Positions 10,836-32,619 of a DNA stretch of 64,000 nucleotides are shown here, piece by piece. Source of the DNA: a phage; sequence record PZ179880.1; one strand, written 5' to 3'. Position 1 is the stretch's first letter. The number at the start of each line of letters is the position of its first letter. A program made the position numbers and the translations under genes. The notes beneath the pieces were generated by a model. That model made no database searches, was not told the origin of the DNA, and saw only the letters and a program-made list of their open reading frames with translations.

Positions 10836-12005
10836 TTAAAAATATTTTTTAAAACTCATCATAACTTTATCATCAACATCATTATCAATCTGTGCTACAA
10901 GGTAAGATGACAGTTCTACTTCTTGTGGTGCGGATTGAACATTATCAGAATTAAGGTATTCACGAATCCAAGGATATGGATGTTTAACCGGAGCATCGGT
11001 AATTGGGCATGGAAGACCACACTGTTTCATACGAGATACAGTTAAGTAATCAATAAAGCTCCACATGCTATTTGTATTTAATCCAGGAACATCACCATCT
11101 TTAAATAAATGAACCGCCCAGTCTTTTTCTTGGCGGTTAACTTCCATGAAAATATCAACTGCTTCTTGTTCACACTCTTGAGCAATTTTAACCCATTCAT
11201 CACCATCAGTGCCAAGTTGAAGTTGACGAATAATATATTGGGTGCCTTTAAGGTGAAGTTGCTCATCACGAGCAATGAACTTCATAATCTTGGCATTACC
11301 TTCCATGATTTCCATGTTCTTATGGAAGTTAAAGGTACATGCGAAAGATACATAAAAACGAATAGCTTCCAATGCGTTGATTACGTGCAGGCAGAGGTAA
11401 AGAGATTTCATTAGTGCTCGTTTAGTACATTCAACAACTTTGCCTAACTCTTCTTTACGAAATCCTTCTGATAAAATTCCTTCATAATCTTCAACCGCAT
11501 TCTGATATTCACGAGTCTTAACTAGAACGTCATCATAATAACGACCAATAGATTCAGCACGTTTCATGATAGCTTCATCTAGTACAATCTCATCAAATAC
11601 CTTCGATGGATCAGTATAAAGATTTCGCATGATATGGGTATATGAACGGCTATGAATAGTTTCACTAAAAGTCCATGTAGCAACCCATGTATCAAGACTT
11701 GGGTCTGAAATTAATGACATAAGTACTGCAGACGGTGCACGACCCTGAATGCTATCTAGAAGTGATTGATACTTCAGGTTGTTAGTAAAAATATCTTGCT
11801 GATACTGAGGAAGCTTGTTAAATTGTGCAGCATCCATCATTAAGTTTACTTCTTCAGGACGCCAGAAAAATGACAACTGCTTTTCGGTTAAATCTTCAAA
11901 AACTTTATGACGTTGAATATCATAACGCGCAATACCAAGACCTGAACCGAAGAACATAGGTTCTTTTAAAACATCAACTGGGTTTGTATTAAAAACTGTA
12001 GACAT
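10836..12005 (-). CDS. nrdB: ribonucleotide reductase small subunit
   Basis: 389 aa from MSTVFNTNP; di-iron/tyrosyl radical family; contiguous (no intron). Confidence 0.9.
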   Translation of the reverse strand: MSTVFNTNPVDVLKEPMFFGSGLGIARYDIQRHKVFEDLTEKQLSFFWRPEEVNLMMDAAQFNKLPQYQQDIFTNNLKYQSLLDSIQGRAPSAVLMSLISDPSLDTWVATWTFSETIHSRSYTHIMRNLYTDPSKVFDEIVLDEAIMKRAESIGRYYDDVLVKTREYQNAVEDYEGILSEGFRKEELGKVVECTKRALMKSLYLCLHVINALEAIRFYVSFACTFNFHKNMEIMEGNAKIMKFIARDEQLHLKGTQYIIRQLQLGTDGDEWVKIAQECEQEAVDIFMEVNRQEKDWAVHLFKDGDVPGLNTNSMWSFIDYLTVSRMKQCGLPCPITDAPVKHPYPWIREYLNSDNVQSAPQEVELSSYLVAQIDNDVDDKVMMSFKKYF

Positions 12006-12736
12006 TAATTTTTCCTCTTTAAAATTCTGCCGTGTTTCCAACCTGGCGGTATAATATCATCTTTACCTATAAGCGTGCATTCACTTCCATTATTAATCCA
12101 TTTCTTACCGCGGATTCCTTTATAATCTCTTGGTTTTATTTTGTCAAACTTTGCATCAAGTTGATATGACCATCTAAATCCATAAGCATATTGAAATTTA
12201 CCCTCGGCACAATATTTGATATTTGACCCGTTTCCATTAACTGACCGGGACGCTGCCGCAATAGAGTGAAAGGTTTCTATGAAATCCCCATCTAATGAGA
12301 ATTTATGTATTTCTATAGATGGGCATGCATATCTATTCACGTTTGATACATGCTGTTTAGTTTCGCTTTTATGGTGCTTGCCTAACATTCCTTTAGGATG
12401 AGGATTATTTTTCCAATATTTCTTAAAGAACTCAGAATTAGCTTTAGCAAATAATTTTCTGTGTAAGCTGTACAATCTGTTATTAATTCTATTGCCAGCT
12501 TTATCTGTTGCCATTAACGTTAACGCAGAGGCAAGCCCAAAATGGCCTTCATTTATCTTACATAGTAGTAAATGAGCTATAAAATGTTCTCTGGCTGTTA
12601 ATTCAACTAAATTTTCCTTATCATCAGAACCTCCCATACATCTAGGGATTATATGATGTGTCTCTTTATATTCTGATAAAGATTCCCGAGCCTGAGCTCG
12701 GGAAATTAGGTCATTATAGATTTTTTGATAATTCAT
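12005..12736 (-). CDS. HNH homing endonuclease with NUMOD-type DNA-binding modules (MobE-like position)
   Basis: 243 aa; HNH core HHIIPRCMGGSDDKENLVELTAREHFIAH; NUMOD3-like GMLGKHHKSETK; free-standing between nrdA and nrdB. Confidence 0.7.
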   Translation of the reverse strand: MNYQKIYNDLISRAQARESLSEYKETHHIIPRCMGGSDDKENLVELTAREHFIAHLLLCKINEGHFGLASALTLMATDKAGNRINNRLYSLHRKLFAKANSEFFKKYWKNNPHPKGMLGKHHKSETKQHVSNVNRYACPSIEIHKFSLDGDFIETFHSIAAASRSVNGNGSNIKYCAEGKFQYAYGFRWSYQLDAKFDKIKPRDYKGIRGKKWINNGSECTLIGKDDIIPPGWKHGRILKRKN

Positions 12737-15000
12737 TACAATTTACACGCTGCGCAATCATCGGCTTTTGGAGTTTCTATTTCGTAATCATCAGTACCGG
12801 AACCATCACGAGTATTATGATAATAGAAGTTTTTAATGCCATAATACCATCCGTATAGCATGTCATCAATCATTACAGACATTGGAACCTTTCCTTTTGG
12901 AAAAATCTGCGGGTCATAATATGTATTCGCTGAAGCTGATTGACATACCCATTTCAGCATAATAGCTACCTGCGTAAGATAAGGTTTATTGCCTTTCTTA
13001 GCTAATTTCCACGTATAATCATAGAGGTCTATGTTATGCTCAATATTGGGCACGACTTGATTAAAGGAACCCTCTTTTGATTCTTTAACAGAGACTGGTC
13101 CACGTGGAGGCTCGATACCGTTTGTACTGTTAGAAACTTGGGAAGATGACTCACATGGCATAAGTGCTGATAATGTGCTATTACGGATGCCAAAGAGCTT
13201 AAGGTCTTCCCGCAGCGACGACCAGTCACAAACGTATTTTGGAGCTGCGATTTGGTCAATCTTTTTATTGTACCAGTCGATAGGTAATTCGCCTCGAGAC
13301 CAACGAGTGTCTGAATAATATTCGCAAGGTCCTTTTTCTTTGGCGAGCTTAATGGATGCTTTAATGAGCCCATACTGTAATCTCTCAAATAGTTCATGTG
13401 TTAAATCGTTAGCATCTTCATAAGAAGCAAAGTTACTTGCCAGCCAAGCTGCATAGTTCGTAACACCAACACCGAGATTACGACGCTTTTTAGCTTTTAA
13501 AGCTTCTGGAACCGGATAATCTTGATAGTCTAACAGGTTATCAAGTGCACGTACTTGAACTTCTGCTAATTCATTAATTTTATCTTGGTCTTGCCAATCG
13601 AAGTTATCCAACACAAATGCAGATAACGTGCACAATCCAATTTCAGCATCAGGACTATTCACATCATTTGTTGGAATAGCAATTTCACAACACAAGTTAC
13701 TCTGGCGAATAGGCGCCTTTTCACGAATAAACGGAGTATAGTTATTCGTATTATCAATGAACTGCACATAAATCCTTGCTGTTCCTGATCGTTCAGTCAT
13801 GAGTAATTCAAATAGTTCACGGGCTTTAATACGCTTTTTGCGAATATTAGGGTCTTTTTCTGCTGCTTCGTATAATTCGCAGAAACGGTCTTGGTCTTTA
13901 AAATAAGAATAATAAAGCTCACCACCCATTTCATGCGGACTGAACAAAGTAATGTAATCGTTCTTTCCAAAACGTTCCATCATCAAATCATTCAACTGGA
14001 CGCCATAATCCATATGACGGATACGGTTTTCTTCTACACCTTTGTTATTTTTCAAAACGAGAAGATTTTCAACTTCCAAATGCCAAATAGGATAATAAGC
14101 AGTAGCAGCGCCGCCACGAATTCCGCCCTGTGAACATGATTTAACAGCAGTCTGAAAATGTTTCCAAAAAGGAATAACACCAGTATGACGCACTTCACCC
14201 ATGCCAATCTTAGAACCTTCGGCACGAATCATACCAACGTTAATACCAATTCCAGCACGTTTGGAGATATATTCAACAATTGAAGCAGAAGCCTTATTAA
14301 TAGACTTTAATGAATCACCTGCCTCAATAACAACGCATGAACTAAACTGCCGAGTTGGAGTACGGCAACCAGCCATAATAGGAGTTGGTAATGAAATCTG
14401 TCGAGTAGATACTGCTTCATAAAAACGAATAACATGTTTTAATCTATCAACAGGTTCATCTTGATGCAATGCCATTCCAATAGTCATAAATGCAAACTGA
14501 GGAGTTTCATAAATTTGACCAGTGGTTTTATCTTTAACGAGATATTTTTCTTTTAATTGCATCGCCCCGGAATAAGTAAATTCCATATCCCGCTCATGCT
14601 TAATTTTTGATTCTAAAAATGTAATTTCTTCTGCTGAATATTTTGACAACAATTCAGGGTCATATTTACCTTCATTTACGCAGTAAGAAATATGGTCAAT
14701 AAATGAACGTGGTTCATACTGCCCATAAACATGCTTACGAAGAGCGAACATTAAACAGCGCGCAGCTACGTATTGATAATCAGGCTCTTCAACTGAAATA
14801 GAATTCGCAGCAGCCTTAATGACAATAGTCTGAATGTCATCAGTTGTCATTCCATCACGGAGATATGATTTAATATTTTCATATAATTCATAAGGATCTA
14901 CAGATGTTCCTTCAGCTGCCCAAGATAAAACTTTAATAATTTTTTGCGGGTCAAAGCTCTGAGAAACACCACTACTTTTGATAACATTAATTAATTGCAT
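12736..15000 (-). CDS. nrdA: ribonucleotide reductase large subunit
   Basis: 754 aa; ATP-cone N-terminus and class I RNR catalytic motifs. Confidence 0.95.
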   Translation of the reverse strand: MQLINVIKSSGVSQSFDPQKIIKVLSWAAEGTSVDPYELYENIKSYLRDGMTTDDIQTIVIKAAANSISVEEPDYQYVAARCLMFALRKHVYGQYEPRSFIDHISYCVNEGKYDPELLSKYSAEEITFLESKIKHERDMEFTYSGAMQLKEKYLVKDKTTGQIYETPQFAFMTIGMALHQDEPVDRLKHVIRFYEAVSTRQISLPTPIMAGCRTPTRQFSSCVVIEAGDSLKSINKASASIVEYISKRAGIGINVGMIRAEGSKIGMGEVRHTGVIPFWKHFQTAVKSCSQGGIRGGAATAYYPIWHLEVENLLVLKNNKGVEENRIRHMDYGVQLNDLMMERFGKNDYITLFSPHEMGGELYYSYFKDQDRFCELYEAAEKDPNIRKKRIKARELFELLMTERSGTARIYVQFIDNTNNYTPFIREKAPIRQSNLCCEIAIPTNDVNSPDAEIGLCTLSAFVLDNFDWQDQDKINELAEVQVRALDNLLDYQDYPVPEALKAKKRRNLGVGVTNYAAWLASNFASYEDANDLTHELFERLQYGLIKASIKLAKEKGPCEYYSDTRWSRGELPIDWYNKKIDQIAAPKYVCDWSSLREDLKLFGIRNSTLSALMPCESSSQVSNSTNGIEPPRGPVSVKESKEGSFNQVVPNIEHNIDLYDYTWKLAKKGNKPYLTQVAIMLKWVCQSASANTYYDPQIFPKGKVPMSVMIDDMLYGWYYGIKNFYYHNTRDGSGTDDYEIETPKADDCAACKL

Positions 15001-15557: not shown

Positions 15558-16418
15558 TTACACCGCCATTTTTCCTTTAATAGGAGGGTGTGATTCGTAA
15601 CCTTTAAGAACGAAATCTTTAGGCCTGAGTTTAAGAACATATTCCAATTGTTCTTTAGTAGAAAGATAGCGGAATTTATAAGGCAATCCGCCTATTACCA
15701 GTTCACAAAGCTCTTTAGGTTCACGACGCAAAATTTCTTTACATTGTTCTACGTGATTCATATAGATATGAGTATTACCGCCAGAAAATATCAAATCTCC
15801 TGGAATAAGATTACACATCTTAGCTACAATATGAACTAATGCAGCATATGATGCAATATTAAATGGAAGACCGAGGAAAACATCTACCGAACGTTGATAC
15901 CACTGCAAATCCAAATAGCCATTACGCACATTAAACTGATAGAACATATGACAAGGCGGTAATGCCATATATTTAAGTTCAGCTGGATTCCACGCCGACA
16001 CAATTTGTCGCCTATCATTTGGTAGTTTTTTAATACGATCAATAACTTCTACAATTTGGTCTACACCGCCAAAATCACGCCATTGTTTTCCGTAAATTGG
16101 ACCAAGTTCACCACTATGATATCCTAAATCTTTTGCTTGGTTTTCGTAATTTTCATCCCAGACTGTTTTGCCTTGAATTAATGAATCGTGTTGAATTAAT
16201 CGTAAATCATTGACATTTGTGCTTCCTGATAAAAACCAAAGTAGCTCAGCAATGCAAGCTTTCCAGGCGAGCTTCTTAGTTGTTACTGCAGGAAAACCTT
16301 TACTTAAATCCCAGCGCAATTTAGTACCGAACAAAGCAATTGTTCCTGTGCCTGTTCGGTCATCAGTTTCATAGCCATTTTCCAGGATATCTTTAATTAA
16401 AAATTGGTATTGTTTCAT
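15558..16418 (-). CDS. td: thymidylate synthase
   Basis: 286 aa, contiguous (no intron); ThyA active-site region ALPPCH. Confidence 0.95.
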   Translation of the reverse strand: MKQYQFLIKDILENGYETDDRTGTGTIALFGTKLRWDLSKGFPAVTTKKLAWKACIAELLWFLSGSTNVNDLRLIQHDSLIQGKTVWDENYENQAKDLGYHSGELGPIYGKQWRDFGGVDQIVEVIDRIKKLPNDRRQIVSAWNPAELKYMALPPCHMFYQFNVRNGYLDLQWYQRSVDVFLGLPFNIASYAALVHIVAKMCNLIPGDLIFSGGNTHIYMNHVEQCKEILRREPKELCELVIGGLPYKFRYLSTKEQLEYVLKLRPKDFVLKGYESHPPIKGKMAV

Positions 16419-22445: not shown

Positions 22446-25400
22446 ATGGCCGAGATTAAAAGAAAGTTCAGAGCAGAAGACGGTCTGGACGCAGGTGGCG
22501 ATAAAATAATCAATGTAGCTTTAGCTGATCGTACCGTAGGAACTGACGGTGTTAACGTTGATTACTTAATTCAAGAAAACACAGTTCAACAATATGATCC
22601 AACTCGTGGATATTTAAAAGATTTTGTAATCATTTATAATAATCGTTTTTGGGCAGCAACGGATAATATTCCAAAACCTGCTGGAAGTTTTAATAGAATT
22701 CGTTGGAAAGCATTACGTACTGATGCCGTATATACAACCGTATCATCTGGACCATATCAATTAAAATCCGGAGAAGCAATTTCAGTAGATACATCAGTTG
22801 GTAATGACATTGAGTTTAATTTACCGCCTTCTCCGCTTGATGGAGAAACCGTAATAATTCAAGATATTGGTGGAAAACCTGGTATAAATCAGGTTAAAAT
22901 AAATTCTTCAAATCAGAGTATTGTTAATTTTAGAGGTGAACAAGTACGTTCAGTTCTAATGACTCATCCAAAGTCACAGATGATATTCATTTTTAATAAT
23001 CGTTTGTGGCAAATGTATGTTGCTGATTATAGCAGAGAAGCTGCGATTGTTACTCCATCGACTGCATATCAAGCACAATCTAATGATTTTATCGTGCGTA
23101 GATTTACTTCCGCTGCGCCGATTAATATTAAACTTCCGAGATTTGCTAATCATGGCGATATTATTAATTTCGTTGATTTAGATAAATTAAATCCACTTTA
23201 TCATACAATTGTCACGACATATGATGAAACAACTTCAGTACAAGAAGTTGGAACTCATTCTATTGAAGGCCGTACATCGATTGACGGTTTCTTGATGTTT
23301 GATGATAATGAAAAATTATGGAGATTGTTTGACGGGGATAGTAAAGCGCGTTTACGCATTATAACAACTAATTCTAATATTCGTCCAAATGAAGAAGTTA
23401 TGGTATTTGGAGCGAATAACGGAACAACCCAAACAATTGAACTTCAGCTTCCAACTGATATTTCCATTGGTGATACTGTTAAAATTTCCATGAATTACAT
23501 GAGAAAAGGACAAACAGTTAAAATCAAAGCTGCTGGTGAAGATAAAATTGCTTCTTCAGTTCAATTGCTGCAATTCCCAAAACGCTCAGAATATCCACCT
23601 GAAGCTGAATGGGTGACTGTCCAAGAATTAGTTTTCAATGGTGAAACTAATTATGTTCCGGTTTTACAACTTGCTTATATAGAAGATTCTGACGGAAAAT
23701 ACTGGGTTGTACAACAAAACGTTCCAACGGTTGAAAGAGTCGATTCTTTAAATAATTCTACTAGAGCAAGATTAGGCGTAATTGCTTTAGCTACACAAGC
23801 TCAAGCAAATGCTGATTTAGAAAATTCTCCGCAAAAAGAATTAGCAATTACACCAGAAACATTAGCTAACCGTACTGCTACAGAAACTCGTAGAGGTATC
23901 GCAAGAATAGCAACTACTGCTCAAGTAAATCAGAACACTACATTCTCTTTTGCTGATGACCTTATCATCACTCCTAAAAAGCTGAATGAAAGAACTGCTA
24001 CAGAAACTCGTAGAGGCGTTGCTGAAATTGCCACGCAACAAGAAACTAATACAGGTACTGATGATACTACAATCATCACTCCTAAAAAGCTTCAAGCTCG
24101 TCAAGGTTCTGAATCATTATCTGGTATTGTAACCTTTGTATCTACTGCAGGAGCTACTCCAGCTTCTAGTCGTGAATTAAATGGTACAAATGTTTATAAT
24201 AAAAACACTAATAATTTAGTTGTTTCGCCTAAAGCTTTGGATCAGTATAAAGCTACTCCAACGCAACAAGGTGCAGTAATTTTAGCAGTTGAAAGTGAAG
24301 TAATTGCTGGACAAAGCCAAGAAGGATGGGCAAATGCGGTTGTAACGCCAGAAACGTTACATAAAAAGACATCAACTGATGCAAGAATTGGTTTAATTGA
24401 AATTGCTACGCAAAGTGAAGTTAATACAGGAACTGATTATACTCGTGCAGTCACTCCTAAAACTTTAAATGACCGTAAAGCAACTGAAAGTTTAAGTGGT
24501 ATAGCTGAAATTGCTACACAAGTTGAATTCGACGCAGGCGTCGACGATACTCGTATCTCTACACCATTAAAAATTAAAACCAGATTTAATAGTACTGATC
24601 GTACTTCTGTTGTTGCTCTATCTGGATTAGTTGAATCAGGAACTCTCTGGGACCATTATACCCTTAATATTCTTGAAGCAAATGAGACACAGCGTGGTAC
24701 ACTTCGTGTGGCTACGCAAGTTGAAGCTGCTGCAGGAACATTGGATAATGTTCTAATAACTCCTAAAAAGCTTTTAGGTACTAAATCTACTGAAGCGCAG
24801 GAAGGCGTTATTAAAGTTGCAACTCGGTCTGAAACTGTAGCTGGAACGTCAGCAAATACTGCTGTATCTCCAAAAAATTTAAAATGGATTGTGCAGAGTG
24901 AACCTACTTGGGCAGCTACTACTGCGATAAGAGGTTTTGTTAAAACCTCATCTGGTTCAATTACGTTCGTTGGTAATGATACAGCTGGTTCTACGCAGGA
25001 CTTAGAACTATATGAGAAAAATAACTATGCAGTATCACCATATGAATTAAACCGCGTATTAGCAAATTATTTGCCGTTAAAAGCAAAAGCTGTAGATAGT
25101 AATTTATTAGATGGTTTAGATTCACTCCAGTTCATTCGTAGGGATATTGCGCAGACGGTTAATGGTTCACTAACCTTAACACAGCAAACGAATCTGAGTG
25201 CCCCTCTTGTATCATCTAGTACTGCTACATTTGGTGGATCAGTTTCAGCAAATAGTACATTAACTATTTCTAATACTGGAACGGCAACTCGTCTGATTTT
25301 TGAGAAAGGACCTCAAACTGGAACAAACCCGGCTCAAACGATGACAGTCAGAGTGTGGGGAAATCAATTTAGTGGGGAGTCAGACACAACACGTTCTACT

Positions 25401-26315
25401 GTATTTGAAGTTAGTGATGAAACTTCTAGTCATTTTTATTCTCAGCGTAATAAAGCTGGTAATATAACATTTAATATCAACGGTACAGTAACACCGATAA
25501 ATGTGAATGCTTCAGGAACATTGAATGCGAATGGCGTTGCAACATTTGGTAATTCAGTCACTGCAACTGGTGAAATTATTTCTCGAAGCGCAAATGCTTT
25601 CCGTGCTATTAATGGAAATTACGGTTTCATTATTCGTAATGACGGGTCAGTAACGAATTTTATGCTTACTGCATCAGGCAATCAAACTGGTGGATTTAAT
25701 GGATTGCGTCCATTGTCCATTAATAATCAATCTGGGCAGGTCACAATTGGTGAAAGCTTGATCATTGCTAAAGGTGCTACTATAAATTCAGGTGGTTTAA
25801 CTGTTAACTCGAGAATTCGTTCTCAAGGTGTTAAAACATCTGATTTATATACCCGCGCTCCGACATCTGATACCGTAGGATTCTGGTCAATCGATATTAA
25901 TGATTCAGCCACTTATAACCAGTTCCCGGGTTATTTTAAAATGGTTGAAAAAACTAATGAAGTTACTGGACTTCCATACTTAGAACGTGGCGAAGAAGTT
26001 AAATCTCCTGGTACATTGACTCAGTTTGGTAACACACTTGATTCACTTTACCAAGATTGGATTACTTATCCAACGACTCCAGAAGCACGTACCACTCGCT
26101 GGACACGTACATGGCAAAAAACTAAAAACTCTTGGTCAAGTTTTGTTCAGGTATTTGACGGAGGTAACCCTCCTCAACCTTCAGATATAGGAGCGATCCC
26201 ATCTGATAATGGAATAATAGGTAATCTTACTATTCGTGATTTCTTACGAATTGGTAATGTTCGCATTATTCCTGACCCAGTGAATAAAACTGTTAAATTT
26301 GAATGGGTTGAATAA
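22446..26315 (+). CDS. 34: long tail fibre proximal subunit gp34
   Basis: 1289 aa; repeated tail-fibre motifs (ITPKKL..TATETRRG..IAT); late promoter TATAAATA upstream. Confidence 0.95.
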   Translation: MAEIKRKFRAEDGLDAGGDKIINVALADRTVGTDGVNVDYLIQENTVQQYDPTRGYLKDFVIIYNNRFWAATDNIPKPAGSFNRIRWKALRTDAVYTTVSSGPYQLKSGEAISVDTSVGNDIEFNLPPSPLDGETVIIQDIGGKPGINQVKINSSNQSIVNFRGEQVRSVLMTHPKSQMIFIFNNRLWQMYVADYSREAAIVTPSTAYQAQSNDFIVRRFTSAAPINIKLPRFANHGDIINFVDLDKLNPLYHTIVTTYDETTSVQEVGTHSIEGRTSIDGFLMFDDNEKLWRLFDGDSKARLRIITTNSNIRPNEEVMVFGANNGTTQTIELQLPTDISIGDTVKISMNYMRKGQTVKIKAAGEDKIASSVQLLQFPKRSEYPPEAEWVTVQELVFNGETNYVPVLQLAYIEDSDGKYWVVQQNVPTVERVDSLNNSTRARLGVIALATQAQANADLENSPQKELAITPETLANRTATETRRGIARIATTAQVNQNTTFSFADDLIITPKKLNERTATETRRGVAEIATQQETNTGTDDTTIITPKKLQARQGSESLSGIVTFVSTAGATPASSRELNGTNVYNKNTNNLVVSPKALDQYKATPTQQGAVILAVESEVIAGQSQEGWANAVVTPETLHKKTSTDARIGLIEIATQSEVNTGTDYTRAVTPKTLNDRKATESLSGIAEIATQVEFDAGVDDTRISTPLKIKTRFNSTDRTSVVALSGLVESGTLWDHYTLNILEANETQRGTLRVATQVEAAAGTLDNVLITPKKLLGTKSTEAQEGVIKVATRSETVAGTSANTAVSPKNLKWIVQSEPTWAATTAIRGFVKTSSGSITFVGNDTAGSTQDLELYEKNNYAVSPYELNRVLANYLPLKAKAVDSNLLDGLDSLQFIRRDIAQTVNGSLTLTQQTNLSAPLVSSSTATFGGSVSANSTLTISNTGTATRLIFEKGPQTGTNPAQTMTVRVWGNQFSGESDTTRSTVFEVSDETSSHFYSQRNKAGNITFNINGTVTPINVNASGTLNANGVATFGNSVTATGEIISRSANAFRAINGNYGFIIRNDGSVTNFMLTASGNQTGGFNGLRPLSINNQSGQVTIGESLIIAKGATINSGGLTVNSRIRSQGVKTSDLYTRAPTSDTVGFWSIDINDSATYNQFPGYFKMVEKTNEVTGLPYLERGEEVKSPGTLTQFGNTLDSLYQDWITYPTTPEARTTRWTRTWQKTKNSWSSFVQVFDGGNPPQPSDIGAIPSDNGIIGNLTIRDFLRIGNVRIIPDPVNKTVKFEWVE
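23860..24110 (+). repeat. ~120-bp tandem repeat units within gene 34
   Basis: actgctacagaaactcgtagagg at ~23875 and ~23995; atcatcactcctaaaaagct at ~23960 and ~24075. Confidence 0.6.
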
Positions 26316-26323
26316 GAGGTATT

Positions 26324-27439
26324 ATGGAAAAATTTATGGCAGAGTTTGGACAAGGATATGTCCAAACGCCATTTTTATCGGAAAGCAATTCAGTAAGATA
26401 TAAAATAAGCATAGCGGGCTCTTGCCCGCTTTCTACTGCAGGGCCATATGTTAAATTTCAGGATAATCCCGTTGGAAATCAAACATTTAGTGCAGGTCTT
26501 CATTTAAGAGTTTTTGACCCTTCTACGGGAGCATTAGTTGATAGTAAGTCATATGCTTTTTCTGCTTCAAACAATACAACATCTGCCGCTTTTGTCAGTT
26601 TTATGAATTCTTTGTCAAACAATAGACTTGTTGCTATATTAACTAGCGGAAAGGTTAATTTTCCTCCTGAAGTGGTATCTTGGTTAAGGGGAGCAGGAAC
26701 TTCAGTTTTTCCATCAGATTCAGTATTGTCAAGATTTGACGTATCATATGCTGCTTTTTATACTTCTTCTAAAAGAGCTATTGCATTAGAGCATGTTAAA
26801 CTAAGTAATAGAAAAAGCACAGATGATTATCAAACTATTTTAGATGTTGTATTTGATAGTTTAGAAGACGTCGGAGCTACGGGATTTCCTAAAAGAACAT
26901 ATGAAAGTGTCGAGCAATTTATGTCAGCGGTTGGTGGAACTAACAACGAAATTGCGCGATTGCCAACTTCAGCTGCTATAAGTAAACTATCTGATTATAA
27001 TTTAATTCCTGGTGATGTTCTTTATCTTAAAGCACAGTTATATGCTGATGCTGATTTACTTGATCTTGGAACTACAAATATATCTATCCGTTTTTATAAT
27101 GCATCAAATGGATATATTTCTTCAACACAGGCTGAGTTTACTGGGCAAGCTGGGTCATGGGAATTAAAGGAAGATTATGTAGTTGTTCCTGAAAATGCAG
27201 TCGGATTTACTATATATGCGCAGAGAACTGCTCAAGCTGGTCAAGGCGGAATGAGGAATTTAAGCTTTTCTGAAGTATCAAGAAATGGCGGCATTTCAAA
27301 ACCTGCCGAATTTGGCGTCAACGGTATTCGTGTTAATTATGTCTGTGAATCGGCTTCACCTCCAGATATAATGGTACTTCCTACACAAGCCTCTTCTAAA
27401 ACTGGCAAAGTGTTTGGGCAAGAATTTAGAGAAGTTTAA
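26324..27439 (+). CDS. 35: long tail fibre hinge/connector gp35
   Basis: 371 aa; follows gene 34 by 8 nt; terminator downstream. Confidence 0.9.
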   Translation: MEKFMAEFGQGYVQTPFLSESNSVRYKISIAGSCPLSTAGPYVKFQDNPVGNQTFSAGLHLRVFDPSTGALVDSKSYAFSASNNTTSAAFVSFMNSLSNNRLVAILTSGKVNFPPEVVSWLRGAGTSVFPSDSVLSRFDVSYAAFYTSSKRAIALEHVKLSNRKSTDDYQTILDVVFDSLEDVGATGFPKRTYESVEQFMSAVGGTNNEIARLPTSAAISKLSDYNLIPGDVLYLKAQLYADADLLDLGTTNISIRFYNASNGYISSTQAEFTGQAGSWELKEDYVVVPENAVGFTIYAQRTAQAGQGGMRNLSFSEVSRNGGISKPAEFGVNGIRVNYVCESASPPDIMVLPTQASSKTGKVFGQEFREV

Positions 27440-27501: not shown

Positions 27502-28152
27502 ATGGCTGATTTAAAAGTAGGTTCAACTGTGGGTGGATCTGTCATTTGGCATCAAGGAAATTTTCCATTGAATTCAGCCGGTGACGATGTACTCTACAAA
27601 TCATTTAAAATATATTCAGAATATAATAAACCACAGGCAGCTGATAACGATTTCGTTTCTAAAGCTAATGGTGGTACTTACACCGGTCCAATTACTATTA
27701 ATTACGGGGTAAATAGTTATCTTCAATTAAGTAATAATGAAACCCCTATCCGAATTCGTTCTGGTGGCGGCACCGGTAATACTCTTGTAATCGGTGGCTC
27801 TTCTGGTGGTATTAGTTTTAGACCTGCAGGTAGTGAAATCACTACTGGACAAATTACTATTACGCCAGAAGGTTTGACAACATTCACTAAAGCTGTAAAG
27901 GCTCCATCTGTAACTGTTACATCTACTCCTTCCGCAGCATCAGATGCTACTCGTAAAGATTATGTTGATGGAGCAATAAATACTGTTACAGCAAATGCAA
28001 ACTCTAGAGTGTTACGATCTGGTGACACCATGACAGGAAATTTAACTGCGCCAAACCTTTTTTCACAGAATCCTGCATCTCAACCTTCACACGTTCCACG
28101 ATTTGACCAAATCGTAATTAAGGATTCTGTTCAAGATTTCGGCTATTATTAA
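27502..28152 (+). CDS. 36: long tail fibre distal connector gp36
   Basis: 216 aa; late promoter TATAAATA at 27471-27478. Confidence 0.9.
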   Translation: MADLKVGSTVGGSVIWHQGNFPLNSAGDDVLYKSFKIYSEYNKPQAADNDFVSKANGGTYTGPITINYGVNSYLQLSNNETPIRIRSGGGTGNTLVIGGSSGGISFRPAGSEITTGQITITPEGLTTFTKAVKAPSVTVTSTPSAASDATRKDYVDGAINTVTANANSRVLRSGDTMTGNLTAPNLFSQNPASQPSHVPRFDQIVIKDSVQDFGYY

Positions 28153-28160
28153 GAGGACTT

Positions 28161-31112
28161 ATGGCTACTTTAAAACAAATACAATTTAAAAGAAGCAAAA
28201 CCGCAGGTCAACTTCCTGCTGCTTCAGTATTAGCCGAAGGTGAATTGGCTATTAATTTAAAAGATAAAACAATTTTCACAAAAGATGACTCAGGCAATGT
28301 TATAGAATTAGGTTTAAAATATGGAGGAACAATTGATGGTTCTTTAACTGTTAATGGAAATATAATTGGAAATTTAACAGGTAACGCTGCAACTGCAACG
28401 AAATTAAAAACAGCACGAAAAATTAATGGTATATCCTTTGATGGGTCAAAAGATATCACGCTAACTCCATCTGACATAAATGTCAATAGCACAACATTTA
28501 TAAAAAATAACGGCGAATTACCTGTTGATGCTAATTTAGATGAGTACGGGCCTGTTGAAGAATATCTTGGAGTTTGGTCGAAAGCAACTTCAACCAACGC
28601 TCAACCAGCAAATAAATTTCCAGAAGAAAATGCTGTAGGTGTGCTAGAAGTATTTGTAGCCGGTCAATTTGCTGGTACTCAGAGATATACAACTAGATAC
28701 GGAAATGTTTATATTCGTTCCTTGACTGCTACATGGAACGGAGTAAATGGTCCGTGGAGTGTGTGGCGAAATATTCAATCCGGTACTCGTCCACTGTCAA
28801 CAACAATTGATCTTAATGATCTAGGAGGCGCTGAACACTTTGGTTTGTGGCGAAATAGTTCAAATTCCATTGCTACCTTTGACAGAAATTTCCCAGAAGA
28901 GGGGTCGTCAGCTAAAGGTCTTTTGGAAGTATATGAAGGGGGAAGCTATTCTCGTACACAAAGATATACAACCATGTTTGGTGTTGTTTATACTCGCTGT
29001 CTTACTGCTGCGTGGGATGCTTCTGCGCCTAAATGGGGACCGTGGCAACAAGTCGGTAATGTCACACCAGCGACTTTTTATGATGGAGATCTGAATGATT
29101 TTAAAACTCCTGGGTTATATAATATTTTAGGCACTGATGCCGTTATTAATTGTCCTACAGGCGAAGGTTTACCAGCCGTTATTGTTGGTTTGCTGGAAGT
29201 TAAACAGCGTGCTTCTGGCGGTGCTATTTTCCAAAAATTTACTACTGCCGGAACAGGTGCAACTACTCGCGATCGTATTTTTGAGCGTGCATATACTGGT
29301 GGTGCGTGGGGTGCATGGAACGAAGTATATACATCTTATTCTCTGCCAATTACTTTGGGTATGGGTGGCATTAAAGCTCAATTAGCGGAGTTAGATTGGC
29401 AAACCTTTGATTTTGTCCCTGGTAGTATGTTTAGCGTTCCTTTGAATAAAATAAAGAACATGCCAGCAAATATGAATTGGGGGACGATTGATGGAAACTT
29501 GGTTATGTTTTCTGTCGGTCCTAGCGAGCATACTGGCACAGGGCGTACTGTTCAGGTTTGGCGTGGTACTGTATCCCAGACAAACTACCGTTATTTTGTC
29601 GTTCGTGTATTCGGTAATTCAGGAAATAGAACTTGCACAGTTCGTCGTGTTGTTCTTGAAGACGGATCACATACTTGGACTGCTCAACAAAACTTTAGAG
29701 GATTGTTGAATATCACTGCTGTTGTTAATCTTGGCGCTAATCAGAAAATTTCACTTGCTCCAGGAGCATATATTCAAGCCCCTGCTAGCGGTTCTGGTTC
29801 TAATACTTACGCAAATCAGAATACTACTATTGCGCCATTATATCAGGCCATTGACGATTCAAATAAAAACCAGTTTGCTCCTATTGTAAAACAGAAAAAC
29901 ACTGTAACAAATATTACTATGGCTTCTGGTATGGATATTGCTAGTTCAGAATATCGTATCATTGCTCAAGGTGATTTATCCGCTACTGGAACTACAGCTA
30001 ATGAATTAGCTACATGGCGTTTCTTGCCGTCTGGCCGATTCATGTCACAAAGCCGAGTTTATGCTGGCGCAGCATTCTTGAACACTGATGGTAACATTGC
30101 TGGTTCAATCTGGAAGAAATACAACAATGCAACCAACTTAGACGCTGCTTTGAATACTCGCGTAGGTAAAAGCGGTGATACGATGACAGGTCGGTTAACA
30201 ATCAATGCACCTAATGATGTTATTGTATTATCAACAACTGCTAGTAATTCTTTGTATATTCGCGGTGATATAGACGGGACTGGTAACTGGTATATTGGTA
30301 GGGGTGGTGGTGATGATAATGGATTAGCGTTCCATAGTTATGCTAATAATGCTGGTGTATACATTACAAACAATGGTGAGATTGCGTTAAACCCGCAAAA
30401 TACCGCAATGGTTAACGTTAACCGTGACCGTGTACGCATTAACGGTTCTGGATGGATTGCTAGACAACCGGGTGATTGGGGCAACCAATGGCGAGTAGAA
30501 GCTCCATTATTCGTTGATCATGGTTATGTTTCACCGGATTGTTATTATCCAATTATTAAAGGAAGAAGTGTAATCACCAATCAAGGATATAGCACCGCTG
30601 TTGACTTTGGTATGCGTCGTATTCCATCACAGTGGGGGCAAGCAATCATTCGTGTCGGATCCACGGAGGCTTCTCCTGATGCTGGACACCCACAAGCTGT
30701 GTTTGAATTCCATCATGATGGATTCTTTTATACACCAGGAAATGGTAGCTTTAGCGATGTGTATATTCGTTCTGACTCCCGTCTCAAGATTAATAAAGAA
30801 GAATTAGAATATGGAGCAGTCGAAAAAGTTTGCCGACTGAAAGTTTATATTTACGATAAAGTTAAGTCTATTAAAGACCGTAGTGTTATTAAACGTGAAG
30901 TTGGTATTATTGCTCAGGACCTTGAAAAGGAATTACCGGAAGCTGTATCTAAGGTTGAAGTTGATGGATCTGATGTTCTGACAATTTCTAACTCTGCTGT
31001 GAATGCTCTTTTAATTAAGGCTATTCAGGAAATGAATGAAGAAATTAAAGAATTGAAAACGCCTCTCTTTACTAAAATTGCTCGCAAAATTAGTAAATAT
31101 TTTAAATTCTAA
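28161..31112 (+). CDS. 37: long tail fibre distal subunit gp37 with C-terminal intramolecular-chaperone (S74-like) domain
   Basis: 983 aa; three internal ~60-aa repeats; C-terminus SDSRLKINKEELEY... typical of auto-cleaving chaperone domains. Confidence 0.9.
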   Translation: MATLKQIQFKRSKTAGQLPAASVLAEGELAINLKDKTIFTKDDSGNVIELGLKYGGTIDGSLTVNGNIIGNLTGNAATATKLKTARKINGISFDGSKDITLTPSDINVNSTTFIKNNGELPVDANLDEYGPVEEYLGVWSKATSTNAQPANKFPEENAVGVLEVFVAGQFAGTQRYTTRYGNVYIRSLTATWNGVNGPWSVWRNIQSGTRPLSTTIDLNDLGGAEHFGLWRNSSNSIATFDRNFPEEGSSAKGLLEVYEGGSYSRTQRYTTMFGVVYTRCLTAAWDASAPKWGPWQQVGNVTPATFYDGDLNDFKTPGLYNILGTDAVINCPTGEGLPAVIVGLLEVKQRASGGAIFQKFTTAGTGATTRDRIFERAYTGGAWGAWNEVYTSYSLPITLGMGGIKAQLAELDWQTFDFVPGSMFSVPLNKIKNMPANMNWGTIDGNLVMFSVGPSEHTGTGRTVQVWRGTVSQTNYRYFVVRVFGNSGNRTCTVRRVVLEDGSHTWTAQQNFRGLLNITAVVNLGANQKISLAPGAYIQAPASGSGSNTYANQNTTIAPLYQAIDDSNKNQFAPIVKQKNTVTNITMASGMDIASSEYRIIAQGDLSATGTTANELATWRFLPSGRFMSQSRVYAGAAFLNTDGNIAGSIWKKYNNATNLDAALNTRVGKSGDTMTGRLTINAPNDVIVLSTTASNSLYIRGDIDGTGNWYIGRGGGDDNGLAFHSYANNAGVYITNNGEIALNPQNTAMVNVNRDRVRINGSGWIARQPGDWGNQWRVEAPLFVDHGYVSPDCYYPIIKGRSVITNQGYSTAVDFGMRRIPSQWGQAIIRVGSTEASPDAGHPQAVFEFHHDGFFYTPGNGSFSDVYIRSDSRLKINKEELEYGAVEKVCRLKVYIYDKVKSIKDRSVIKREVGIIAQDLEKELPEAVSKVEVDGSDVLTISNSAVNALLIKAIQEMNEEIKELKTPLFTKIARKISKYFKF

Positions 31113-31116
31113 CAGC

Positions 31117-31137
31117 AAGGGGGAAATTTCCCCCTTT
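31117..31137 (+). terminator. stem-loop downstream of gene 37 (weak terminator)
   Basis: GGGGGAAAUUUCCCCC palindrome followed by UUUGG. Confidence 0.4.
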
Positions 31138-31149
31138 GGAGTATAAATT

Positions 31150-31932
31150 ATGGCAGTAGTTGGAGTTCCTGGCTGGATTGGAAGTTCAGCCGTAAATGAA
31201 ACGGGACAGCGCTGGATGAGTCAAGCGGCTGGTCAATTAAGATTGGGTGTTCCTTGCTGGATGAGTCAATTTGCAGGTCGCTCACGAGAAATTATTCACA
31301 CGCTTGGAGCAGACCATAACTTCAATGGTCAATGGTTCCGAGATAGATGTTTTGAGGCAGGTAGTGCACCTATAGTGTTTAATATCACTGGAGATTTAGT
31401 ATCATATTCTAAAGATGTTCCTTTATTCTTCATGTACGGAGATACACCGAATGAATATGTTCAGTTGAACATACATGGTGTAACGATGTATGGCCGTGGC
31501 GGGAATGGCGGTAGCAATAGTCCTGGCTCAGCTGGGGGTCATTGTATTCAAAATGATATTGGTGGGAGACTAAGAATTAATAATGGCGGAGCTATTGCTG
31601 GCGGCGGTGGCGGTGGCGGCGGCGGGTATTATTCTCCTTTTTCACAAATGAGATTGACCTTTGGCGGTGGCGGCGGTCGTCCGTTTGGCGCACCGGGCGG
31701 ATCTATTGATATGCAATCAGGAGCAACTGCTGGTACTATTTCTTCGCCAGGCGCAGGGTCTGTGAACGGTATCTACAACGGCGGGTCTGGTGGTGAAGTT
31801 GGCTCCGCAGGAGGTAGATGTAATATTCGTGGTCAAGGATATGAATACGATGGCGGAGCTGCTGGTTATGCCGTCATAGGGTCTACACCGACATGGCAAA
31901 ACGTTGGAGCAATATATGGTCCAAGAGTATAA
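31150..31932 (+). CDS. 38: T2-type tail-fibre adhesin gp38 (glycine-rich motifs)
   Basis: 260 aa; poly-Gly blocks [10 protein letters not shown] and [13 protein letters not shown] separated by variable segments. Confidence 0.85.
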
Positions 31933-31962: not shown

Positions 31963-32619
31963 ATGGCAGCACCTAGAATATCATTTTCGCCCTCTGATAT
32001 TCTGTTTGGTGTTCTAGATCGCTTGTTCAAAGATAATGCTACCGGGAAAGTTCTTGCTTCCCGGGTAGCTGTCGTAATTCTTTTGTTTATAATGGCGATT
32101 GTTTGGTATAGGGGAGATAGTTTCTTTGAGTACTATAAGCAATCAAAGTATGAAACATACAGTGAAATTATTGAAAAGGAAAGAAATGCACGCTTTGAAT
32201 CTGTCGCCCTGGAACAACTCCAGATAGTTCATATATCATCTGAGGCAGACTTTAGTGCGGTGTATTCTTTCCGCCCTAAAAACTTAAACTATTTTGTTGA
32301 TATTATAGCATATGAAGGAAAATTACCTTCAACAATAAGCGAAAAATCACTTGGAGGATATCCTGTTGATAAAACTATGGATGAATATACAGTTCATTTA
32401 AATGGACGTCATTATTATTCCGACTCAAAATTTGCTTTTTTACCAACTAAAAAGCCTACTCCCGAAATAAATTACATGTACAGTTGTCCATATTTCAATT
32501 TGGATAATATCTATGCTGGAACAATAACCATGTACTGGTATAGAAATGATCATATAAGTAATGACCGCCTTGAATCAATATGTTCTCAGGCGGCCAGAAT
32601 ATTAGGAAGGGCTAAATAA
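31963..32619 (+). CDS. t: holin T
   Basis: 218 aa; single N-terminal TM (VAVVILLFIMAIVW) plus large periplasmic domain. Confidence 0.9.
   Translation: MAAPRISFSPSDILFGVLDRLFKDNATGKVLASRVAVVILLFIMAIVWYRGDSFFEYYKQSKYETYSEIIEKERNARFESVALEQLQIVHISSEADFSAVYSFRPKNLNYFVDIIAYEGKLPSTISEKSLGGYPVDKTMDEYTVHLNGRHYYSDSKFAFLPTKKPTPEINYMYSCPYFNLDNIYAGTITMYWYRNDHISNDRLESICSQAARILGRAK

Follow-up and report, generated by a model that had tools for sequence, protein, structure and literature searches.

Genes 37 and 38 and their spacer

The window, a 64,000-nucleotide stretch of phage DNA (sequence record PZ179880.1), is a Tequatrovirus segment of the T6/RB5/PST/fPS-2-like kind. Its open reading frames run in the order 34-35-36-37-38-t, collinear with the annotated Paracelsus genome. 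Gene 37 occupies positions 28161 to 31112 on the + strand and encodes the precursor of the long tail fiber distal subunit (983 amino acids plus stop, approximately 107 kDa). Its product matches PHROG 1699 ("long tail fiber protein distal subunit") and, at residues 690 to 739, the Pfam model gp37_trimer. The gp37/gp38 region of phages KEP10 and Paracelsus shares 95% nucleotide identity with the one here, and the Paracelsus counterpart is annotated as Gp37. Searches of gp37 and gp38 against NCBIfam returned no matching model, and Rfam and tRNA scans over the whole 64-kb window found nothing.

Gene 38 (31150 to 31932, + strand) encodes a protein of 260 amino acids that matches the Pfam models GP38 (E value of 3.1e-71) and Gp38_N (1.2e-20) and the PDB chains 6F45_D, which is gp38 of phage S16 (6.5e-49), and 9V85 (1.6e-80). 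The protein combines an N-terminal attachment domain (Gp38_N) with glycine-rich motifs, and the glycine runs are visible in the translation. By these matches, gp38 is an adhesin of the T2/S16 type and not a chaperone of the T4 type. As a preliminary description of this DNA had stated, the gene begins directly downstream of gene 37: the TAA stop codon lies at 31110 to 31112, and a Shine-Dalgarno sequence read from the sequence (GGAG, 31138 to 31141, + strand) stands 8 nt before the ATG at 31150.

Folding of the spacer between the two genes places a hairpin at 31118 to 31135 on the + strand (AGGGGGA-AATT-TCCCCCT). Described earlier as a weak stem-loop, it consists of 7 to 8 perfect pairs, with a folding energy of −12.1 kcal/mol alone and −13.6 kcal/mol in its intergenic context; the z-score in the 71-nt context is −2.0. 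T2 and RB6 carry a hairpin of another sequence at the same position (AGAGGGC-TTCG-GCCCTCT in T2). We considered an intrinsic terminator and rejected it: only three T residues follow the stem, and no terminator was called on the + strand; the calls made on the − strand at this stem result from the palindrome. Masking of the gene 38 ribosome-binding site was also set aside as speculation. The core of the hairpin ends 3 nt before GGAG. The 71-nt fold contains a weak outer stem in which AUUCUAA pairs with UUGGAGU; inspection of the T2 spacer by eye revealed no evident equivalent of this pairing. A hairpin at this conserved position might set the ratio of gp37 to gp38 expression.

A Peptidase_S74 domain at the C terminus of gp37

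The C-terminal 113 residues of gp37 (S871 to F983, 12.9 kDa; 30771 to 31109, + strand) were delimited as an intramolecular chaperone domain by a match to Pfam PF13884 (Peptidase_S74) together with a profile alignment. This family is also called the "chaperone of endosialidase" domain. In the whole protein, the Pfam match covers residues 871 to 929 and profile positions 1 to 57 of 58, with an E value of 6e-10 and a score of 39.7 bits against a gathering cutoff of 22 bits; with the last 137 amino acids alone, the E value is 3.7e-11. A single-sequence search of the PDB gave a weak match to gp37 of Salmonella phage S16 (6F45_A; E value of 6.6e-4, 23.4 bits). When a nine-sequence profile was compared with solved structures, the same chain was matched with an E value of 2.2e-22 over 117 positions, in an alignment that reaches approximately residue 974, through the C-terminal helix. 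This profile also matched the auto-processing (ICA) domain of MYRF (7DC3, 2e-13), a phage tail fiber (8JOV, 2.5e-13), and the neck appendage chaperone of phage GA-1 (3GUD, 0.009). Thus, the preliminary description was right in regarding this C terminus as chaperone-like, and the similarity to peptidase S74 and chaperone profiles that it raised was found by both the Pfam and the PDB profile searches. Its boundaries require revision: the domain had been placed from position 30700 with a length of approximately 120 residues, but that position misses the reading frame by one base and lies 24 codons upstream of S871.

The nine aligned sequences are distant homologs that span T2, RB6, T5-like, Streptococcus PblB, Aeromonas, Synechococcus, Klebsiella, and Citrobacter phages, and ten alignment columns are invariant among them. 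We weighed the idea that chance or composition, such as that of a generic coiled-coil helix, produced the similarity and that the C terminus is ordinary fiber shaft. Helix-forming sequence rich in lysine and glutamate does make up the last third of the domain and could draw spurious matches; however, the Pfam match spans the nonhelical part (871 to 929), includes the catalytic motif, and exceeds the curated cutoff, and the profile match to a solved homolog (E value of 2e-22) extends over 117 positions. Chance has next to no prospect of accounting for these matches and is already refuted by them together with the ten invariant columns, which hold for phages that infect Gram-negative, Gram-positive, and cyanobacterial hosts.

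The position of the domain is that of the family, since it extends up to the stop codon. A tblastn search found 1,307 phage records with this domain at the C-terminal ends of fiber genes, and in 29 PHROG tail fiber families it matches the extreme C termini (the last ~100 profile positions). A word-indexed homolog search returned 20 close fragments, most of which carry PF13884. The Peptidase_S74 fold comprises helices, a β-hairpin "tentacle," and a C-terminal helix that forms a trimeric coiled coil. An AlphaFold2 monomer of residues 851 to 983, built from a 15-sequence alignment, is too poor for use (mean pLDDT of 49.7, pTM of 0.24); the native domain is an obligate, intertwined trimer, and few sequences were aligned. 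The elements of the model follow an order compatible with that fold, namely, two helices, a hairpin at 929 to 942, and a long helix at 944 to 980. The sequence matches identify the C terminus of gp37 as an intramolecular chaperone domain of the Peptidase_S74 family whose Ser/Lys motif is intact.

Beyond the predicted coiled-coil helix, the domain ends in a basic amphipathic tail, TPLFTKIARKISKYFKF (residues 967 to 983; 31059 to 31109, + strand), that is specific to this subtype. Other subtypes of the chaperone domain have different ends, and the tail is absent in the T2 and S16 versions. It was found in 225 phage records of the T-even type, and among the matches listed, every annotated occurrence is a tail fiber/gp37 gene. 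The hydrophobic moment of the tail is 0.67, a value reached by 0.45% of shuffled sequences. Through this tail, the chaperone after its release, or the precursor before cleavage, might take on a second role, for which association with the membrane or with the gp57A chaperone in fiber assembly and the timing of gp38 loading might be candidates. A second role of the released 12.9-kDa peptide through TPLFTKIARKISKYFKF and, separately, a tuning of the gp37:gp38 ratio by the hairpin are long shots.

Predicted autoproteolysis and capping by gp38

The domain opens with the motif S-D-x-R-x-K, here S871-D-S-R-L-K876 (30771 to 30788, + strand), which was assigned from the nine-sequence alignment and by equivalence to T5 pb1. 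All nine aligned sequences have its S, D, R, and K, and the lysine (Lys876) stands at +5 relative to Ser871. In T5 pb1, Ser1264 and Lys1269 cleave the Thr1263-Ser1264 bond, and the S1264A substitution blocks cleavage (PMC4690869). The 3GUD chain, which is the released GA-1 chaperone, begins SDERHK. By analogy, the predicted nucleophile, with which the released peptide would begin, is Ser871, and Lys876 is the predicted general base. The predicted cut falls at DVYIR|SDSRLK, between nucleotides 30770 and 30771, and would release a peptide of 113 residues and 12.9 kDa. The position of the motif likewise defines a predicted mature gp37 of residues 1 to 870 (28161 to 30770, + strand; approximately 94 kDa), whose tip strand, D-V-Y-I-R870, is expected, by comparison with S16, to form the docking face for gp38. 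In S16, gp37 removes its own C-terminal 113 residues by a cut at DLNVS^SDRRIKK and thereby exposes the gp38 docking surface (PMC7917993); because the two fragments are equal in length, we count the predicted 113-residue fragment as support. For Yersinia phages fPS-2, -65, and -90, a cut at DVYIR^SDGRLKI has been predicted from an alignment with the structure of S16 (PMC7917993).

Because the solved homologs work in this way, we infer the following mechanism for gp37. The chaperone domains would bring three gp37 chains into register, starting at the C termini, and so drive the distal fiber tip to fold. After the tip has reached its correct fold, Lys876 would activate Ser871 to attack the R870-S871 bond in each chain, and removal of the chaperone would allow the gp38 adhesin to cap the gp37 tip. 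The folding sensor in T5 and K1F lies in the mature part and consists of Arg and Asp residues of a neighboring chain, which form the oxyanion hole. The mature gp37 tip could not be aligned with T5 or K1F, and the folding sensor residues were therefore not located; the sole match of mature gp37 to solved relatives is short, lies in the T7 gp17 shaft region, and is uninformative.

Whether the domain cuts itself can be weighed against a reading in which it is a genuine S74 domain that a protease of the host or of the phage cleaves in trans. The wording of the literature leaves some room for this reading, as PMC3157838 writes "proteolytically cleaved" without naming a protease and the original "proteolytic processing" result of 1986 could be read in this way. 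On the other side, the Ser/Lys pair for autocatalysis is intact and invariant in all nine sequences, homologs expressed alone in E. coli self-cleave and are blocked by Ser-to-Ala substitution (T5 pb1 [PMC4690869]), and S16 gp37 is described as autocleaved (PMC7917993, PMC7289586). Together, these points make a trans-acting protease extremely unlikely.

For the phage studied here, we infer cleavage, its bond (R870-S871), and its timing before gp38 binding, and to that extent the domain could instead be retained as a degenerate, noncleaving S74 domain that forms part of the tip with gp38. The subtype-specific basic amphipathic tail, which has no assigned role, would fit such retention. However, the catalytic motif is intact, removal of the domain in S16 exposes the surface on which gp38 docks (PMC7917993), the N-terminal domain of gp38 here is of the S16 type (Gp38_N, 1.2e-20), and cleavage of gp37 is reported for T2 and T6 (PMC3157838), all of which render retention very improbable. 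We thus hold it highly probable that S871 to F983 is a Peptidase_S74/endosialidase chaperone domain that cleaves itself off after the tip has folded and before gp38 caps it.

Relation to known fiber systems

C-terminal processing of T2 gp37 was reportedly shown by Drexler, Riede, and Henning in 1986. The intramolecular chaperone domains of K1F, T5 pb1, and GA-1/phi29 were reportedly described by Schwarzer (2007), Schulz (2010), and Garcia-Doval (2015), and Dunne et al. are said to have determined the structure of the S16 gp37-gp38 tip (PDB 6F45) in 2018. Autocatalytic release of the chaperone domain is known for S16, T5, and K1F. Since T2-type processing has been known from 1986, the family from 2007, and the S16 structure from 2018, the chaperone domain and the processing of gp37 are already known and ordinary and add nothing new to phage biology; with the site prediction for the same subtype in the fPS phages in print since 2021, there is no novelty in the cleavage site either. 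The significance is chiefly for annotation and engineering: R870 should be regarded as the end of mature gp37 in this phage, and fiber tip or gp38 swap constructs must include the 113-residue domain so that folding can occur and should allow for its cleavage.

Among the closest known systems are gp37 proteins of the same T6/RB5/PST type. The chaperone domain of Escherichia phage Paracelsus/Bas36 is 99.1% identical to the one here, while the receptor-proximal parts of mature gp37 are mosaic, with identity to Paracelsus falling to 78% over residues 701 to 750. The gp37 proteins of fPS-2, -65, and -90 share the DVYIR|SD(S/G)RLKI site and the 113-residue domain but show a few substitutions, with G at the position of S873, and fPS-2 and PST share the KISKYFKF tail.

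The arrangement of the fiber is consistent with the T2 type, as had been proposed for this DNA at the outset. A passage of PMC3157838 that cites Drexler et al. 1986 has T2 and T6 gp37 cleaved at the C terminus and then capped by gp38, which reportedly sits on processed gp37 in T2 and T6 virions (PMC3157838) and likewise in S16 (PMC7917993); here, a gp38 of the T2/S16 type is encoded downstream. T2 shares the gene order, the junction (NVYIR|SDIRLK), and a hairpin between genes 37 and 38, but its domain is only ~42% identical to that here and shorter, with ~100 residues from the serine to an end at ELESKLM. S16 shares the 113-residue chaperone and, by prediction, the cut before S-D-x-R-x-K and the docking of gp38 on the exposed tip; it differs in the residues before the cut (DLNVS versus DVYIR) and in lacking the basic amphipathic C-terminal tail.

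K1F, T5 pb1, and GA-1/phi29 have in common with gp37 a C-terminal Peptidase_S74 domain that starts with Ser...Lys(+5) and that is released, or in gp37 would be released, after the trimer has folded; T5-like fibers are 36 to 42% identical to the domain here by tblastn. The mature folds of K1F and T5 (the endosialidase β-helix and the T5 bullet domain) are unrelated to the T-even fiber tip, and receptor binding there falls to the mature tip itself, whereas here cleavage would create the site at which another protein, the adhesin, docks. T4 shares the locus and the task of folding the distal fiber from its C terminus. However, T4 gp37 keeps a C-terminal receptor-binding needle and depends on two separate chaperones, gp38 and gp57 (PMC5537660, PMC3157838), whereas the phage studied here has the more common arrangement, in which the chaperone is carried in cis and gp38 is the adhesin.

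The chaperone domain of gp37 and its genomic setting

The window is a segment of a T-even (Tequatrovirus) genome, with + strand open reading frames (ORFs) for gp34 (22446-26315, 1289 aa), gp35 (26324-27439), gp36 (27502-28152), gp37 (28161-31112, 983 aa), gp38 (31150-31932, 260 aa), and holin t (31963-32619). The segment spanning genes 37 and 38 shares 95% DNA identity with phage KEP10 and Escherichia phage Paracelsus and 90-95% with ~300 further T-even-type phages; the annotated Paracelsus genome is collinear with the window.

The C terminus of gp37 carries the Pfam domain PF13884 (Peptidase_S74, "chaperone of endosialidase") at residues 871-929 (39.7 bits, above the curated cut-off of 22 bits; E 6e-10; profile positions 1-57/58). 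No NCBIfam model matched. The domain opens with S871-D-S-R-L-K876 (nt 30771-30788) and comprises 113 aa (12.9 kDa) from S871 to the last residue, leaving 870 aa (~94 kDa) upstream. A preliminary description had recognized this C terminus as chaperone-like, and the peptide strings it quoted are present; its interval, 30700-31112, contains the domain, which runs from nt 30771 to the C-terminal end, but its start lies 24 codons too far upstream and is off the reading frame by one base; the length of about 120 residues is corrected to 113.

A single-sequence search of PDB chains returned 6F45_A, the long tail fibre distal subunit of Salmonella phage S16 (E 6.6e-4). We then aligned the domain with the C termini of T2 gp37, RB6 gp37, a T5-like fibre, Streptococcus phage PblB, and fibres of Aeromonas, Synechococcus, Klebsiella, and Citrobacter phages. 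Ten residues are invariant (S871, D872, R874, K876, G915, A918, P926, V929, L951, and A954), and the alignment profile matched 6F45_A (E 2.2e-22), the MYRF auto-processing domain 7DC3 (E 2e-13), the phage tail fibre 8JOV (E 2.5e-13), and the GA-1 neck-appendage chaperone 3GUD (E 0.009), whose deposited chain starts exactly at SDERHK, homologous to the gp37 motif. The domain is present in 1307 phage records (tblastn) and matches the extreme C termini of 29 PHROG fibre families. On these sequence comparisons, a chance origin of the similarity can be excluded. An AlphaFold2 monomer of residues 851-983 was poor (pLDDT 49.7), with two helices, a hairpin, and a long C-terminal helix, an order that fits the known fold without being evidence for it.

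Relative to Paracelsus, its closest relative, gp37 is a mosaic (28161-30770, residues ~651-800): most 50-residue blocks are 96-100% identical, with identity down to 90% and 78% in residues 651-750. Local recombination or diversification of the distal shaft would fit this pattern. Elsewhere, a 243-aa - strand ORF (12005-12736) sits between nrdA (12736-15000) and nrdB (~10836-12020). It has a NUMOD1 domain (E 1.2e-5), matches HNH weakly, and probably encodes a free-standing homing endonuclease at a mobE-like position; Paracelsus, otherwise collinear, lacks it, its nrdA and nrdB being adjacent. The thymidylate synthase gene td (15558-16418, - strand; 286 aa; Pfam E 1.6e-95) is in one piece, and an Rfam scan across the 64-kb window found no group I intron; in the Paracelsus annotation, an intron with a homing endonuclease splits td.

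Predicted cleavage of gp37 and docking of gp38

In T5 pb1, the Thr1263-Ser1264 bond is cut by Ser1264, activated by Lys1269; S1264A blocks cleavage, which also depends on correct trimer folding through an Arg from a neighbouring chain (PMC4690869). The site DVYIR^SDGRLKI of fPS-2/-65/-90 aligns with that of S16, with cleavage predicted after DVYIR (PMC7917993). For T2/T6, PMC3157838, citing Drexler et al. 1986, describes C-terminal cleavage of gp37 followed by capping with gp38. The window's gp37 reads DVYIR|SDSRLKI and has a C-terminal tail identical to that of fPS-2, PST, and RB5; it therefore belongs to this published subtype. By its sequence, gp38 is of the adhesin type, with Pfam matches to GP38 (3.1e-71) and Gp38_N (1.2e-20) and PDB matches to S16 gp38 (6F45_D, 6.5e-49) and 9V85 (1.6e-80). 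Domain membership, the motif, its position, and the gp38 partner are established here.

Given this literature, the subtype, and the adhesin-type gp38, the most likely mechanism is that three C-terminal chaperone domains would bring the distal tip into register and fold it, after which Ser871/Lys876 would cut R870|S871, the 12.9-kDa peptides would depart, and gp38 would dock onto three DVYIR strands. A protease acting in trans could instead make the cut, the domain could be retained uncleaved, or the similarity could be a compositional artefact; all three are disfavoured by a Ser/Lys motif that is both intact and invariant, by a gp38 of the adhesin type, and by the data on homologues, and even taken together they are very improbable. 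The motif-bearing PF13884 domain and its adhesin partner agree with the T2-type fibre proposed in the preliminary description; from the homologues we infer that cleavage takes place, when it does so, and that it is autocatalytic.

The spacer between genes 37 and 38

Gene 38 starts directly after gene 37, as had been noted: the stop codon TAA (31110-31112) is followed on the + strand by a perfect hairpin, AGGGGGA-AATT-TCCCCCT (31118-31135), GGAG (31138-31141), and ATG, the start of gene 38, at 31150. The hairpin had been called weak but is not: its folding energy is -12.1 kcal/mol by itself and -13.6 within its context (z-score -2.0, 71-nt context). It does not qualify as a canonical terminator either: it is followed by only three T, and no terminator was called on the + strand. 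At the same place, T2 carries AGAGGGC-TTCG-GCCCTCT (C(UUCG)G type) and RB6 and Paracelsus carry GGGGGAAATGCCCCC, all, like the window's, at ~-13 kcal/mol; that of Klebsiella phage KPN-11i is weaker and overlaps the stop codon. Position is thus conserved across these phages and sequence is not, which suggests a selected RNA structure in late mRNA with a conserved structural role rather than a terminator, perhaps in mRNA stability or processing or in setting the gp37:gp38 ratio.

The 71-nt fold also contains a weak outer stem (31106-31142) in which AUUCUAA, made up of the final gene 37 codon and the stop, pairs with UUGGAGU, the gene 38 Shine-Dalgarno region. This stem would couple gene 38 translation to gene 37 termination, a speculative role since no equivalent pairing was evident by eye in the T2 spacer.

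The subtype's tail and relation to known systems

The last 17 residues of the domain, TPLFTKIARKISKYFKF (31059-31109, + strand, residues 967-983), form a basic and strongly amphipathic tail with a hydrophobic moment of 0.67 that 0.45% of shuffles reach. This tail is conserved across 225 phage records; among the matches listed, every annotated one is a tail-fibre or gp37 gene. In T2, S16, and other subtypes, the domain ends differently, without this tail. The tail and the hairpin are both minor details.

The chaperone-domain finding is correct and already known, as everything here fits the established system. Closest are the same-subtype gp37 proteins of fPS-2, PST, RB5, and Paracelsus, the last with a chaperone domain 99.1% identical to the window's; next come S16 gp37-gp38 and T2 gp37, and then, more distantly, the chaperone domains of K1F, T5, and GA-1. 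T4 differs in that the gp37 C terminus is kept and gp38 is a trans chaperone (PMC5537660; PMC3157838).
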